Shown here one piece after another: positions 1 to 11,177 of a DNA stretch of 13,036 nucleotides. Numbering within the stretch: position 1 is the first letter of the stretch; each line of letters begins with the position of its first letter. The stretch lies in the IMG/VR virus record IMGVR_UViG_2724679140_000014. One strand, written 5' to 3'. Below the pieces are notes generated by a model, which saw only the letters and a list, made by a program, of their open reading frames with translations, was not told where the DNA came from and made no database searches. The stretch comes from a virus (taxonomy: Duplodnaviria; Heunggongvirae; Uroviricota; Caudoviricetes). A program made the position numbers and the translations under genes.

Positions 1-1242
1 ATGGCACGAAAAACCACCCCACTAACCATTACGGAGATCAAAAACGCACGACCAGGGGAAAAGGAATACACCCTGCAGGATGGCGGAGGATTATTTCTTC
101 TGGTGAAGCCCTCCGGATCAAAAATATGGCGTTTTACGTACTACCGCCCGGCAGATAAAAAACGGACTATTATCAGCCTTGGATCGCTAAATGATGTTTC
201 CCTGTCTGATGCCAGAGAGCGACGGAATGAATACAGGTCACTCATAGCAAAGGGAATTGACCCACAGGACCATGAACGCCGGAAACGTGAAGCAGAGAGC
301 CGGAAAAAGGGCAACACGTTCGAAAAAGTTGCCTCGGACTGGTACGAGATGAAAAAAGGCCAGAATCTGGCTTACAACACGATTAAGGATATCTGGCGAT
401 CCCTGGAAAAATACGTATTCCCGTACATCGGAAACACGCCAATAGATACCCTCACCGCTCGCCGCTTTGTTGAGATACTCACCCCCATTAAAGCACGCGG
501 CAACCTGGAAACTCTGAAACGCGTTTTGCAGCGCATCAATGAAGTGATGGATTTTGCCGCCAACAGTGGGCTGATTGACATCAACACCGCCGCGAACGTC
601 CGCAAGGCATTCCCCTCACCCACCAAAAAGCACATGCCAACCATCCGACCGGAACAGCTACCGCAGCTAATGCACGATTTATCGGTCGCCAGCATAGAAC
701 GGCAAACCAGATTGCTGATTGAGTGGCAACTGCTGACCGTAGCACGCCCAGCCGAAGCAGCCGCCGCACGCTGGGAAGAAATAGATCTCGATGCCGAAAC
801 CTGGACGATTCCAGCCGGACGCATGAAGATGCGCCGTGACCATGTGATCCCACTTTGCGGTCAGGCTATGGCTGTACTGGAAACCATGAAGCCAATCAGC
901 GCACACAGGGAACACGTTTTTCCCAGCCTTAAAAATCCGATGCTGCCAATGAGCAGCCAGACCGCTAACGCTGCATTACGCCGGATGGGTTACGCTGGTG
1001 TGCTGGTGTCTCACGGATTACGCGCCATATTCAGCACAGCAGCGAACGAGGAAGGATTCGAGCCGGACGTAATCGAGGCCGCACTCGCACACGTGGACAC
1101 GAACGAGGTAAGGCGGGCATATAACAGAAGTAACTACCTGGAAAAGCGCGTGGTGCTTATGCGCTGGTGGGGGGAATTTGTAGAGGCCGCAGCTACCGGA
1201 GTGACCATAGCCAGTGGTAAAAGGGGTATCCGTGCCGTGTAA
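1..1242 (+). CDS. int: Tyrosine recombinase/integrase, P4/CP4-57 (IntA-like) family, 413 aa, apparently full length
   Basis: 413-aa ORF starting at base 1. The N-terminus (MARKTTPLT..EIKNA..GGGLFLLVKPSGSKIWRFTYYRP) and C-terminal catalytic region (HGLRAIFST..VIEAALAH..RAYNRSNYLEKR) match the P4-type integrase pattern as I recall it. The length equals E. coli IntA, and an alpA gene follows as in CP4-57-like islands. Confidence 0.9.
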   Translation: MARKTTPLTITEIKNARPGEKEYTLQDGGGLFLLVKPSGSKIWRFTYYRPADKKRTIISLGSLNDVSLSDARERRNEYRSLIAKGIDPQDHERRKREAESRKKGNTFEKVASDWYEMKKGQNLAYNTIKDIWRSLEKYVFPYIGNTPIDTLTARRFVEILTPIKARGNLETLKRVLQRINEVMDFAANSGLIDINTAANVRKAFPSPTKKHMPTIRPEQLPQLMHDLSVASIERQTRLLIEWQLLTVARPAEAAAARWEEIDLDAETWTIPAGRMKMRRDHVIPLCGQAMAVLETMKPISAHREHVFPSLKNPMLPMSSQTANAALRRMGYAGVLVSHGLRAIFSTAANEEGFEPDVIEAALAHVDTNEVRRAYNRSNYLEKRVVLMRWWGEFVEAAATGVTIASGKRGIRAV

Positions 1243-1266
1243 CTGTACAAAAAACCAGTAAAAGCG

Positions 1267-1295
1267 ATGCAAACCATGCTAAACCATCGTATAAT
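1267..1295 (+). promoter_or_regulatory. Candidate sigma70 promoter (perfect -10 TATAAT at 1290-1295, weak -35 about 17 bp upstream)
   Basis: TATAAT hexamer read directly in the int/orf80 intergenic region; the -35 match is poor (ATGCAA). Confidence 0.25.
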
Positions 1296-1358
1296 CGCCA
1301 CAACCCACCCAATACAGAGAGGAGTCACCCAAATCATGAAATTCAAGGAGCTATCCAG

Positions 1359-1601
1359 GTGTTTTTCAATGAAAAGGTATCCCCTGCTTGCGGCGAAGGG
1401 CTGCAACTGGCGTTAATGGCAAATCGTGAATTCTGGTCAACATACGATCCGGAAGACAAATCAACAGCCCCCACAAAACACGAGGTAGTCAGTTTTTTAC
1501 GCTCGCGTGGCGCATCGAAAAATCTGGCTGAAAGCATCGACAAGGTGCTGAGGCCCACCAGCCTTAAATGTGGTGGGCGACCTAAGAAGTGGAAACGGTA
1601 A
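1359..1601 (+). CDS. Hypothetical small protein (80 aa, GTG start)
   Basis: ORF with a Shine-Dalgarno-like AAGGAG 8 nt upstream of the GTG, followed by a strong intrinsic terminator. No recognisable family. Confidence 0.35.
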   Translation: MFFNEKVSPACGEGLQLALMANREFWSTYDPEDKSTAPTKHEVVSFLRSRGASKNLAESIDKVLRPTSLKCGGRPKKWKR

Positions 1602-1606
1602 TCACA

Positions 1607-1636
1607 ATAGCGGCCCCTTGCGGTCGCTATTTTTTT
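1607..1636 (+). terminator. Rho-independent terminator
   Basis: 9-bp stem ATAGCGGCC/GGTCGCTAT (one G-U pair) with a 6-nt loop, followed by a T6 run; sits right after the orf80 stop. Confidence 0.6.
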
Positions 1637-1665
1637 GCAAAAAGAAAGCGTAATCAATGAGATAA

Positions 1666-1705
1666 AAAACAGTGAGTACCGTTTTAAAACGGTGAGTACT
1701 GTTTT
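1666..1705. promoter_or_regulatory. Two tandem 20-bp dyad-symmetric operator-like sites upstream of alpA
   Basis: AAAACAGTGAGTACCGTTTT (1666-1685) and AAAACGGTGAGTACTGTTTT (1686-1705), each with inverted AAAAC/GTTTT flanks around a GTGAGTAC core, 20 bp centre to centre. Confidence 0.4.
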
Positions 1706-1770
1706 TCCCGCCCTGCCCTGTTTTACCGTATTTATCACCGGAATACGCCGGATTAACGAGGTAAAACACG

Positions 1771-9279: not shown

Positions 9280-9290
9280 TTCGCGGTACC
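9247..9290 (+). repeat. Direct repeat copy 1 (about 42 bp, overlaps the 3' end of the 8770-9279 gene)
   Basis: CAGGTAGTGCAGGAGATTCACAAGGGGGAATAATTCGCGGTACC recurs with a few mismatches at 9622-9663. Confidence 0.6.
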
Positions 9291-9621
9291 GGAAAACATC
9301 CACCAGCAGGGAACGACAAAAAACAAAAGCGCACCGCTAAGGATGCGCCTTGATTGAGGTTCAATGAGTAAGACATGCACGCACATTGTGGCGCACCTCG
9401 TTCATTCTGGCAATGTATCAGGCTGGTGCGTGCGGTAAGTCTCCAGATTTGCGCAATGGTTCCGCCTGTGATGTTAAGGTTTGTTAAGTTGTTTTGCGCA
9501 GAGATGGACGGAATAAACATCGATGTAAGCCCCGTAATTACTGGCCTTGCCACGTAAAAACCGCGAACAATGATCAGGTTAATCATGCTTAGAAATGCCA
9601 GGGGTATTTGCGCAAAAATGA

Positions 9622-9663
9622 CAGGTAGTGCAGGAGATTCACCAGGTGGAGGATTCGCAACCA
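9622..9663 (+). repeat. Direct repeat copy 2
   Basis: CAGGTAGTGCAGGAGATTCACCAGGTGGAGGATTCGCAACC; the two copies bracket about 330 bp. Confidence 0.6.
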
Positions 9664-9762
9664 TTCTCTTTATTTCTCGTCATCACGCTGACCTGTATTC
9701 AGCTGGTTGGTCTGTGGCACATCCCCGGATATTTAATTACACCTTACGGTAGCTATCTCCGG

Positions 9763-9960
9763 CGGGTCCTTCCCGGAACCTTAAGCGCCGGGGGTACGGA
9801 TACGTGCAATTCTTAACTGTTTATGAAAATTTTTCGGGAAAAGTCAGATCCGTTCTTCTTCTCTGTAACTCATTGTTTAATCGTAAAATCATCAAAAAAA
9901 GAAAGGATCTGGCAGTGGTCATTTTGGGACAAAAATGACGTTATCAGATCCTTTCTCAGT
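9763..9960 (+). other. Lambda-type cos region (cosQ/cosB-like, cosN position diverged), + orientation
   Basis: TTTATGAAAATTTTTCGGG..CCGTTCTTCTTCTCTGTAACTCATTGTTTAATCGTAAAAT..AAAGAAAGGATCTG..CAGATCCTTTCTCAGTTTTGTTC aligns with the lambda left end (..CTATTTATGAAAATTTTCCGG..CGTTTCCGTTCTTCTTCGTCATAACTTAATGTTTTTATTTAAAATACC..AAAGAAAGGAAACGACAG..CTGTCGTTTCCTTTCTCTGTTTTTGTCC) as I recall it. The expected cosN position reads GGGGGTACGGATACG rather than GGGCGGCGACCT. Confidence 0.6.
9894..9955 (-). terminator. Hairpin with U-tract on the minus strand, immediately 3' of the nu1-like gene
   Basis: Perfect 11-bp inverted repeat GAAAGGATCTG (9901-9911) / CAGATCCTTTC (9945-9955) with a 33-nt loop, followed on the minus strand by T7 (A-run 9894-9900 on +). 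The same dyad is the homologue of the lambda cos-region inverted repeat. Confidence 0.45.
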
Positions 9961-9965
9961 TTTGT

Positions 9966-10568
9966 TCAATAATTGCGCTGTTGTCGCTCACCTTTCTGTT
10001 GCCGTAATTTCTCCGGCACGTTTCCGGTTGTTTCCATCAGGTAGTCTTTCAGAATGCGGGGCAGATTATCGGCAGTTTTGGCGCACGCATTACAGGCCCG
10101 TGCTGTTTCCTTCCTCAGCCCATCGAGCATTGCCGGAGTCATCCCGGGGAACTGCCTTTGCATTGTGAGCGGTAAACTATCCATGATCGAAGAAATCTGA
10201 CTCGCCAGTCCACGAAGCGCATAGAGCACGAACTCAGTATCTGTAACCTCCCCCGTCTCTCTGGCGTTCTTCAGTTCCTGCCCGTCAGCCTGTGCTTTGG
10301 TGAGACGGTAGCGTTCGTACTCTGTTGTGCCTGGCTGTAAATCTGATTCACCAGCAGCACGTAAATCATCAAGCTCCCTGCGGAGTTTTTCGTTTTCGAT
10401 GTCCTTCTCCCTTTGTGCATACCATTCGATCACCTGTGCAGAGTCGAAAGTCACTTCCACGCCTTTTCCGCCACCAGATGCATGAGGAAGGCCCAGCGTC
10501 TGCCAGCGTTCAATTGTGCGCGGATCAACGCCGAAAATCTCCGCCAGTCTCTTTTTGTTAACATTCAT
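9966..10568 (-). CDS. nu1: Terminase small subunit, lambda Nu1 family (200 aa), with a divergent C-terminus
   Basis: [103 protein letters not shown].. is collinear with lambda Nu1 ([103 protein letters not shown]..); canonical cos lies directly upstream. The last 50 or so residues differ from lambda. Confidence 0.85.
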
Positions 10569-10790
10569 CTATCAAATCCTCATCAAAAACCACCTCCGAC
10601 ATGAAACGCCAGAAAAACGGGATTTTCCGGTGTTATGGTGTCGTATGTTTATGATAGTTAATTTAAATAAAAACATAATGTTACATGCAAGAAGTACCGA
10701 CATGCTTTTTCCCTGAAAAATTTTCATAAATAGTGAAAATCTGCGCGTCTGCCGCCCCGTGGTGTTAATGGTTCCGGAAAGGACCCGTGA
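10569..10790 (-). other. Lambda-type cos site (cosQ-cosN-cosB), minus orientation, canonical position upstream of nu1
   Basis: Minus strand reads GGGGCGGCAGACGCGCAGATTTTCACTATTTATGAAAATTTTTCAGGG..GGTACTTCTTGCATGTAACATTATGTTTTTATTTAAATTAAC.., versus lambda GGGCGGCGACCTCGCGGGTTTTCGCTATTTATGAAAATTTTCCGG..CGTTCTTCTTCGTCATAACTTAATGTTTTTATTTAAAATACC. The cosN-like segment is complement of 10746-10758. Confidence 0.7.
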
Positions 10791-11177
10791 AAAGTCTCCG
10801 CCCCTGTCCGGCAGTGTAAGAGGTGTTTTTTAGGGAGACCCTTTTCAGCCCATAAAACTGGAAAAATCACGGTTTTTTTAGTCTGCTGGTGGAGTGAGTT
10901 TTTTTAACGATGCCAGTAATGGCGCGGGTTGGGCGTGGTTTTGTCTGATAGGTTTTATCTATCAACTCTGCGCACACCTTCCCAAAAAAAAGTTTTCGAT
11001 CCTGCGGCGATGCGAAGAAGGGTTGGCGGGCGGTCCCTGACATCCAGGGCCACAGGGATTTGATCTGCCCCTCCCGTTGATGATAACCGTTATCAATTAC
11101 TCCACCAACCGGCAGGACGGTAACAATACATCGGGCTACCCGTTCCGGTACTGGTTAATCCTGGCTTTCGCAATCAG

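Follow-up and report, generated by a model that had tools for sequence, protein, structure and literature searches.

Identity and Integration Site of the Element

What kind of mobile element is held in the IMG/VR virus record IMGVR_UViG_2724679140_000014, a DNA stretch of 13,036 nucleotides (hereafter, the window) that runs from the ATG of an integrase gene to the stop codon of a PerC-family gene? The initial annotation, made from the letters without search tools, read it as a satellite of the phage-inducible chromosomal island (PICI) type, and this interpretation is supported by the comparisons described below. The window very probably represents most of a ~14.1-kb Gram-negative PICI of the EcCICFT073/EcCIATCC25922 family, namely its integrase-to-PerC portion, located in the 3' end of an Escherichia coli tRNA-Pro gene between yejM and yejO. 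Gene content, gene order, homologies, iterons, cos anatomy and att repeats were all read from the DNA itself. The element is a fresh representative of a well-described family, and it is set apart from an ordinary PICI by an unusual late zone with two combinations of cos and terS, the gene for the terminase small subunit (TerS).

The entire window matches E. coli chromosomes and is covered to at least 80% in 7 complete genomes, the best chromosomal match being STEC276 (L001), with 98.3% identity. The element is found in Shiga-toxin-producing E. coli. In STEC276 and STEC316 (L002), the matching DNA is flanked by yejM and tRNA-Pro on one side and by the autotransporter gene yejO on the other. The att core CTCTCGTGCCGACCAAA (17 bp) forms the last 17 bases of tRNA-Pro in STEC276, ~210 bp upstream of the integrase ATG. 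A second copy lies 14,144 bp downstream, 1.18 kb past the window end, and a 26-nt arm-type repeat stands beside each copy. No tRNA or tmRNA genes were found within the window. The initial annotation had placed attL just upstream of the window, which proved right because the 3' end of tRNA-Pro is found there and is repeated downstream. The matching direct repeat that it expected on the other side was also located, 14.1 kb away in the closest genomes, with no structural genes between the two copies. Its proposed extent of 1-10800 was too short. The element passes through the window end and continues for ~1.2 kb to attR, and three genes (orf104, orf96 and a second PerC gene) lie beyond position 10800. 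No annotated coding sequence is present between the window end and attR in STEC276.

Six PICIs are assigned to the yejM locus by Fillol-Salom et al. 2018 (Table S1). The attR copies carry deletions of 1-2 nt in STEC316 (about 22230) and in EcCIATCC25922 (L009, about 12600), and attL leaves the tRNA intact. These deletions fit a published note that the attR tRNA fragments of PICIs are often damaged.

The criteria of Fillol-Salom 2018 were used for Gram-negative PICIs, and the SatelliteFinder model (de Sousa 2023) was used for the PICI core. With respect to the former, the element has int followed by alpA, an att site of the PICI kind whose direct repeats stand apart by a distance within the range of about 8-15 kb, a rep gene with an iteron origin, no structural genes and a packaging determinant. 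The SatelliteFinder core consists of an integrase, a regulator, a primase-replicase, a capsid-morphogenesis gene and terS, and it forbids tail, holin and capsid-forming PICI (cfPICI) genes (de Sousa 2023). Four of the five core components were recognized by homology, and none of the forbidden genes was found. Because a capsid-morphogenesis gene was not found in the window with Pfam or PHROGs, it would fall under 'Type B' in the SatelliteFinder scheme of PICIs. cfPICIs are defined by their own capsid, protease, portal, head-tail adaptor or connector and large terminase; none of these genes was detected by Pfam or PHROGs, which leaves the element outside that class.

Pfam, PHROGs and NCBIfam scans of the window ORFs (open reading frames) revealed no capsid, tail, portal, large-terminase or lysis genes, in agreement with the initial annotation, which had reported none for capsid, tail and lysis. 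Of phage structural, lysis and packaging genes, the scanned ORFs gave matches only to two terS genes, at 8770-9279 (+) and 9966-10568 (-), and both had been overlooked earlier. The claimed succession of integrase, AlpA, small overlapping ORFs, a P-loop protein, an iteron origin, accessory genes and cos was found in exactly that order. Gram-negative PICIs are organized into an integration zone, a Bro/immunity zone with C4/isrK RNAs, a zone for replication and a late zone that is dynamic and consists of genes captured from helpers (PMC10111431). As far as the predicted genes tell, the order in the window matches this four-zone organization exactly (PMC10111431). Several E. coli genomes show the same organization at 94-98% identity, as do six IMG/VR contigs of 11-13.7 kb. 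The family, the att locus, the zone organization, TerS-carrying PICIs and C4/isrK RNAs in PICIs are already published, so little new is added on these points; the tool-free reading nevertheless recognized a PICI correctly.

Comparison with Known Islands

Of the 19 window ORFs, 13 have counterparts in EcCICFT073 (L006), the prototype E. coli PICI, and their order is kept; the initial annotation had suggested a comparison of gene content with PICIs of the EcCICFT073 type. The shared genes include ylcI, the small ORFs, a DUF4222 gene, the N-terminus of Rep, orf80b, the gene for a single-stranded DNA-binding protein (SSB), PerC and the last gene (69%). Rightward transcription in a single direction is a further criterion of Fillol-Salom 2018; on the window, 16 of the 20 accepted ORFs lie on the + strand, the exceptions being a 65-aa ORF, ylcI, nu1 and orf96; the first two are leftward in EcCICFT073 too. 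The two islands differ in their integrases, which are 25% identical, and in their att sites, ycfD-phoQ for EcCICFT073 versus tRNA-Pro here. EcCICFT073 carries capsid and decoration genes, whereas none was found in the window island.

EcCIATCC25922, a Gram-negative PICI of E. coli ATCC 25922, has an entry in Table S1 (Fillol-Salom et al. 2018). It occupies the same tRNA-Pro/yejM locus and has arm-type repeats of the same style. Its integrase is 82.6% identical to that of the window, its AlpA 76%, its SSB 90% and its TerS 50%. The run of small ORFs, the DUF4222 gene and a homologue of orf104 as the final gene are also shared. In contrast, the replication protein of EcCIATCC25922 is a primase of the D5_N/Pox_D5 type, whereas a DUF927 protein is encoded here. 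EcCIATCC25922 has homologues of major-capsid and decoration genes and is without ProQ, PerC and the DUF1441 terS, and its listed size is 11.3 kb versus 14.1 kb for the present element.

The TerS-encoding pac islands among the SaPI-type PICIs (SaPI, Staphylococcus aureus pathogenicity island) of Gram-positive cocci resemble the window island: their Rep helicase is a homologue of the solved 'pathogenicity island protein', an iteron origin adjoins it, and they likewise encode their own small terminase, which pairs with the large terminase of the helper. SaPIs use headful packaging and the Stl repressor, whereas the window island has cos sites, an AlpA activator and, as judged from gene orientation, probably mainly unidirectional transcription. 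No Ppi or capsid-size genes were recognized in the window island in this comparison.

Integration Zone and Immunity RNAs

The left end of the window encodes a P4-family tyrosine integrase of 413 aa (1..1242, +) whose arm-binding, central and catalytic domains are those of the P4/CP4-57 group (Pfam Arm-DNA-bind_3, Phage_int_M and Phage_integrase). A full-length match to NCBIfam NF007246 scores 561 bits, and identity with P4 Int is 33% over about 400 aa. The integrase gene is followed by an AlpA-family helix-turn-helix regulator or excisionase (1771..1977, +; PF05930, E 4.5e-8; PHROG 66, excisionase/transcriptional regulator).

Two small RNAs were recognized in the regulatory zone. The first is an RNA of the isrK or c4-a1b1 type with target sites a1 and b1 (3002..3078, +), which matches Rfam RF01394 with 80 bits (gathering score 50) and is ended by a terminator-like hairpin at 3056-3074. 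RF03163 also covers 2989-3041, with 44.5 bits, just under its gathering score of 46.7. The second is a C4/CI-type antisense immunity RNA (3100..3187, +), which matches RF01695 with 75.3 bits (gathering score 45). The octamer TAACGAAG, the complement of the C4 loop, has + strand copies only at 3043, within isrK, and at 3223, the latter 13 nt 5' of the ATG of an icd-like ORF. A second matching target octamer, ATTGGCGT, is found at 3026 and 3191. The whole immunity module (2989-3245) is also present in the relatives L012 and L016. This layout of isrK and C4 is the design of c4 in P1 and P7 and of CI/seqA in P4. It suggests, by analogy with these systems, that the icd-like gene and the replication operon may be gated by C4/isrK antisense pairing. 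C4/isrK RNAs have already been published for several Gram-negative PICIs. EcCICFT073 and EcCIATCC25922 gave no C4/isrK match even at E <= 1, whereas both RNAs are present here.

A divergent promoter region (2725..2995), defined by predicted sites and repeats in the DNA, separates ylcI from the isrK/C4 operon. Promoter-like sites, which are consensus matches only, lie at 2756-2785 (+), 2804-2776 (-), 2752-2725 (-) and 2966-2995 (+), the last one just 5' of isrK. GTGTAAGACA repeats in direct and inverted orientation are spread across 2718-2800 and are candidate operator sites for some regulator. The longest ORF of this stretch, 483 aa at 1982-3433 with a GTG start, was rejected as spurious, since the divergent promoter region, the two RNA genes and the 64-aa icd-like gene all fall within it.

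The immunity module brings the island close to P4, a satellite of P2-type phages, and the contrast with P4 drawn in the initial annotation is less clean than claimed because the regulatory zone carries a C4/isrK module like that of P4 and P1. A P4-like satellite exploiting a P2-type helper would share the P4-family integrase (33%), the AlpA/Vis-like regulator, the C4/CI-type RNA with its upstream isrK/seqA-like target, the similar size and the integration in a tRNA gene. However, when P4 proteins were compared with the window and STEC276 by tblastn, only Int, Vis and the CI region were matched, together with a marginal epsilon (E 0.03); no match was obtained to sid, delta, psu, alpha, gop, beta or cII. 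If the DUF927 helicase is taken as the analogue of alpha, the element has no more than three of the seven core components of the P4-like model of SatelliteFinder. Its cos sites belong to the lambda, 21 and mEp460 types, and cos and terS are lambdoid and not P2-type, whereas P4 encodes no terminase subunit. A P4-like identity is very improbable, and synteny with EcCICFT073 and EcCIATCC25922 together with the lack of psu, sid and delta favors the preference for a PICI over a prophage or P4 that the initial annotation had expressed.

Replication Zone

The replication gene (4431..6563, +) encodes a 710-aa DUF927 protein (PF06048, E 8e-46) with the Walker A motif SSAGKTT. The protein is homologous to PDB 8tch_A, a 'Pathogenicity island protein' (E 3e-15), and its match to the Cch helicase of the staphylococcal cassette chromosome mec (SCCmec; 5dgk) is weaker. 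Over its first 158 aa, it shares 41% identity with the N-terminal part of EcCICFT073 Pri. The PHROG 1139 'DNA primase' profile aligned over profile positions 243-886 only, and a primase domain was not detected in the protein. Given the 8tch and Cch homology and the alignment of the PHROG profile only from position 243, the protein is considered a replication initiator/helicase and not a demonstrable primase. The earlier description as a P-loop primase/helicase-like protein is borne out for the helicase part, whereas the primase part could not be demonstrated.

Directly 3' of this gene, the region 6586..6905 is the predicted replication origin, composed of iterons and AT-rich tracts. The motif GGGACRAC occurs there 11 times within 6589-6878, in both orientations and around AT-rich DNA. 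Only 0.78 copies would be expected, and none of 200 shuffled sequences attained 11. By its motif pattern, the predicted origin matches the published organization of PICI origins, in which the origin comes right after the replication gene and has two iteron sets around AT-rich DNA. The origin of EcCICFT073 is also directly 3' of rep, with two iteron sets in a similar layout, but its iterons differ.

A second origin-like region was noticed at 21400-21612 of the STEC276 locus, ~650-860 bp past the window end and within the element. It has different iterons, with three direct copies of TTGCGGGTTA, an AT-rich spacer and three inverted copies of TAACCCGC, followed by a TTTTGTATATATATACGAAAAAT tract that also terminates the origin in the window. 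As no cognate rep gene adjoins it, this region may be an orphan origin from another PICI.

Packaging Zone

The initial annotation had reported a cos site. Lambda-type cos DNA was confirmed, but three cos-like sites are present and not one, at 8547-8730 (+), 9761-9965 (+) and 10790-10569 (-), two of them in a phage-like cos–terS arrangement. The late zone thus holds two different captured cos–terS cassettes side by side and a third, decayed cos.

The first cassette begins with cos3 (8547..8730, +), a site of the mEp460/PhiR40_1 type. Its cosQ CGGGTCCT, its cosN position GGGCGACGGATG and the DNA downstream align with the PhiR40_1 cos region. Behind it lies a DUF1441-type terS (8770..9279, +; PF07278, E 9e-36; PHROG 141, E 2.5e-55), whose ORF opens at 8731 and whose likely start is 8770. 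The protein is 60-63% identical over its full length to the product of the gene directly 5' of the large terminase (TerL) gene in mEp460-type lambdoid phages. No relevant literature on DUF1441 in satellites was found. The last 29 nt of this terS (9247-9275) are duplicated with 93% identity at 9622-9650, 375 bp downstream, which has the look of a scar left by the insertion of a cassette or by recombination.

The second cassette is inverted relative to the main operon. It consists of cos1 (10569..10790, -) directly upstream of nu1 (9966..10568, -), which encodes a Nu1-type TerS of 200 aa (PF07471, E 1e-67) that matches the lambda TerS structure 6hn7_B with E 2e-38. cos1 is complete, with cosQ, cosN and cosB, and aligns with phage 21 from genome base 1. 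Its cosQ is CGGGTCCTTTCCGG and its predicted cohesive end is GGGCGGCAGACG, versus GGGCGGCGACCT in lambda and 21, and its R3 and R1 match the annotated cosB sites of phage 21. The remaining site, cos2 (9761..9965, +), is a degenerate lambda-type cos that matches phage cos regions and has no terS behind it. Compared with lambda cos, it has a cosQ-like GCGGGTCCTTCCCGG and lambda-like R3/I1/R2/R1, but its cosN position has diverged. Its DNA leads into the 3' end of nu1, which is inverted, and it forms an 80-nt inverted repeat (75%) with cos1.

The Nu1 protein is a mosaic, in which a DNA-binding half like that of phage 21 is joined to a C-terminal half that other PICI TerS proteins have too. Residues 1-100 are 80-82% identical to Nu1 of phage 21 and PhiR5_1, whereas residues 101-181 are 72% identical to the TerS of EcCIATCC25922 and only 35-37% identical to those of lambda and 21. 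Over the last 40 residues, identity is 20% with lambda, 27.5% with phage 21, 50% with PhiR5_1 and 65% with the EcCIATCC25922 TerS. The idea of a classic lambda-21 hybrid, with a 21-type cosB binder and a lambda-type TerL-binding tail, is unsupported in view of the 20% identity to lambda. A search of 5426 complete E. coli genomes placed DNA for the C-terminal half of the PICI-type TerS in 801 of them, and no large terminase was annotated under this match in the 40 matches listed of the 801 genomes. No large-terminase gene was adjacent either in the published PICI EcCIRM12579, the single locus inspected. The cosN variant of cos1 was found in only six IMG/VR contigs, all of them island relatives of 11-13.7 kb and none phage-sized, and the cosN variant of cos3 was not found in IMG/VR.

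The orientation of nu1 varies among relatives. It is co-oriented with int in four of the six contigs (L013, L014, L015, L017) and flipped in the window and L016. In L013 (9628-10598), a copy of the cos1 cosN motif stands on either side of nu1, in inverted orientation. In EcCIATCC25922, inverted cos copies also surround a terS that is co-oriented with int; it encodes a Nu1-related TerS with a C-terminal half 72% identical to that of the window, and the cosN is the canonical GGGCGGCGACCT. These arrangements suggest that the nu1 segment (window 9700-10850) may have been inverted by recombination between flanking inverted cos copies.

How these cassettes are used can be considered in more than one way. 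EcCICFT073 also has two inverted lambda-like cos sites around its packaging gene. In this island, a protein of the Rpp type heterodimerizes with the helper TerS and retargets it to the island cosB, and the window island could be packaged in the same manner. The similar layout, with a winged helix-turn-helix packaging gene between inverted cos sites, and a short match of Nu1 to RppA at the level of this motif (E 2e-4, 27 aa) agree with such a mechanism. Rpp-type packaging is recognized by two features, an Rpp homologue of 139-154 aa and, adjacent to it, a cos with no phage R sites in its cosB. EcCICFT073 has RppA, no TerS and a cosB without phage R sites, whereas the window island has its own TerS, and its cos1 cosB keeps the R3 and R1 of the phage 21 type. 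No Rpp homologue was found in the island. DUF1441 was examined as an Rpp equivalent and rejected (BLASTP against RppA, E 4.9; no PDB match at E <= 0.01). The structures of RppC and of the RppC-TerS complex are reported as solved in the Rpp paper, with 6hn7_B as the TerS chain; DUF1441 is without a PDB match although these structures are reported. In addition, both island proteins are full-length TerS homologues with C-terminal halves, unlike the shorter Rpps. Packaging by the Rpp mechanism is therefore very unlikely.

The phage origin of the late zone also raises the possibility that the window is a decayed lambdoid prophage remnant, which kept an integrase, some early genes and cos/terS fragments and is no longer mobilizable. 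nu1, the DUF1441 terS and all three cos sites are clearly phage-derived, and there are signs of rearrangement in the degenerate cos2, the inverted nu1 segment and the 29-nt duplicate at 9622-9650. However, for the zones of integration, immunity and replication, the homologues are found in PICIs and not in lambdoid early regions, and the listed ORFs are intact. The recurrence of the organization at high identity among genomes and contigs, the absence of remnants of large terminase, portal, capsid, tail and lysis genes, and an att site that is catalogued for PICIs also speak against decay. There is accordingly little probability that the window is a prophage remnant, and a PICI with its own TerS proteins remains the preferred interpretation.

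A more specific proposal is that the island is a dual-specificity satellite, in which two complete, convergent cos–terS cassettes, mEp460/DUF1441 and 21/Nu1, taken from two separate lambdoid lineages of packaging genes, would serve two helper classes. The C-terminus of Nu1 and the cosN would be satellite-specific, and nu1 could flip as a switch of packaging direction or terS expression. This proposal should be regarded as tentative and rather unlikely in full.

Several points weigh against the interpretation as a PICI packaged through its own TerS proteins. The att sites were read in loci of other genomes that are 97-98% identical and not in the window's own flanks, the capsid-morphogenesis component of the core was not found, and the case for a PICI is built from sequence comparison. 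The cohesive end of cos1 differs from that of lambda and 21 at 4 of 12 positions, and the cosN sequences of cos3 and cos2 also deviate from the phage consensus, so these are putative sites of cutting by a helper TerL. nu1 lies on the strand opposite to the AlpA-driven operon, a weak point as regards its expression. Finally, the cosB of cos1 and the DNA-binding half of Nu1 are of the phage-21 type, and the island TerS could be dispensable for packaging by a 21-type helper.

Accessory and Other Genes

A conserved small ORF between int and alpA (1359..1601, +) has no Pfam, PHROG or NCBIfam match; it shares 73% identity with its positional counterpart in EcCIATCC25922. The leftward pair of the regulatory zone consists of the 65-aa ORF (2260-2457, -), recognized as an open reading frame, and the YlcI/YnfO-family gene (2515-2733, -; NF041551 YlcI_YnfO_N, E 2e-18), which is 65% identical to its EcCICFT073 homologue. 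Terminator-like hairpins were predicted on the same strand at 2159-2134 and 2036-2009.

The block of small overlapping ORFs (3243..4434, +) was delimited with the RefSeq annotation of the homologous locus, PHROGs and Pfam. It starts with the icd-like ORF (3243-3436, +), continues with three ORFs known from PHROGs only (3423-3662, 3628-3888 and 3881-4114, all +) and ends with the DUF4222 gene (4120-4434, +; PF13973). The PHROGs of the block are 5146/2512, 24341, 2196 and 285. Its members are 49-83% identical to ORFs of EcCICFT073 and EcCIATCC25922, and their order is kept.

Four genes follow the origin. They are a conserved 80-aa ORF (6920-7162, +), 89% identical to its EcCICFT073 counterpart, the SSB gene (7159-7581, +; PF00436), 70% identical to its EcCICFT073 counterpart, a ProQ/FinO-domain gene (7618-8154, +; PF04352, E 1e-24) and a PerC-family gene (8151-8438, +; PF06069, E 4e-36). 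The ProQ/FinO-domain RNA-chaperone gene is present in all six IMG/VR relatives and not in EcCICFT073 or EcCIATCC25922. A co-occurrence of ProQ/FinO with C4/isrK was ruled out, as L013, L014 and L015 have proQ without an Rfam C4/isrK match. PerC is a PICI accessory gene in Table S1 of Fillol-Salom 2018.

At the right end, a 1.1-kb stretch (10800-11900) contains no convincing gene; within it, four or five copies of the motif (C/G)GTGAC are clustered at 11170-11220, spaced by ~10-11 nt. This stretch is followed by orf104 (11912-12226, +), which shares 69-71% identity with the final genes of EcCICFT073 and EcCIATCC25922, by orf96 (12329-12619, -) as a right-end gene and by the second PerC gene (12728-13036, +; PF06069, E 4.5e-23). 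The PerC paralogues at 8151-8438 and 12728-13036 are 58% and 49% identical, respectively, to the single PerC gene of EcCICFT073. The family is annotated as transcriptional activators and may bear on Shiga-toxin-producing E. coli hosts. A PADLOC search of ten selected ORFs revealed no meaningful defense genes.

Proposed Life Cycle and Significance

The life cycle of the island can be sketched on the model of characterized relatives, from which induction, excision, replication, cutting at cos, the identity of the helper and packaging of multimers are inferred. A lambdoid helper phage would turn on alpA. AlpA would then drive the rightward operon and, together with Int, excision at the 17-bp att core. 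The C4/isrK antisense pair would gate translation of the icd-like gene and probably of the downstream replication genes too. The DUF927 helicase would bind the GGGACRAC iterons just 3' of its own gene, and the circle would be replicated with the island SSB. A gpA-type large terminase of the helper would cut the concatemers at lambda-type cos sites, recruited by the island TerS, the Nu1-type at cos1 and the DUF1441-type at cos3. The DNA would be packaged into helper capsids, probably as trimers (3 x 14.1 = 42.4 kb) that fill a lambda-sized head, because no gene for capsid size or remodelling was found. The virion DNA obtained from a lambda/EcCICFT073 lysogen was all phage-sized.

Mobility of the island could matter for virulence regulation, given its hosts among Shiga-toxin-producing E. 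coli and its two genes for PerC-family regulators. For the family as a whole, the element offers a convenient natural case of how cos-type PICIs without Rpp choose and exploit their helpers.

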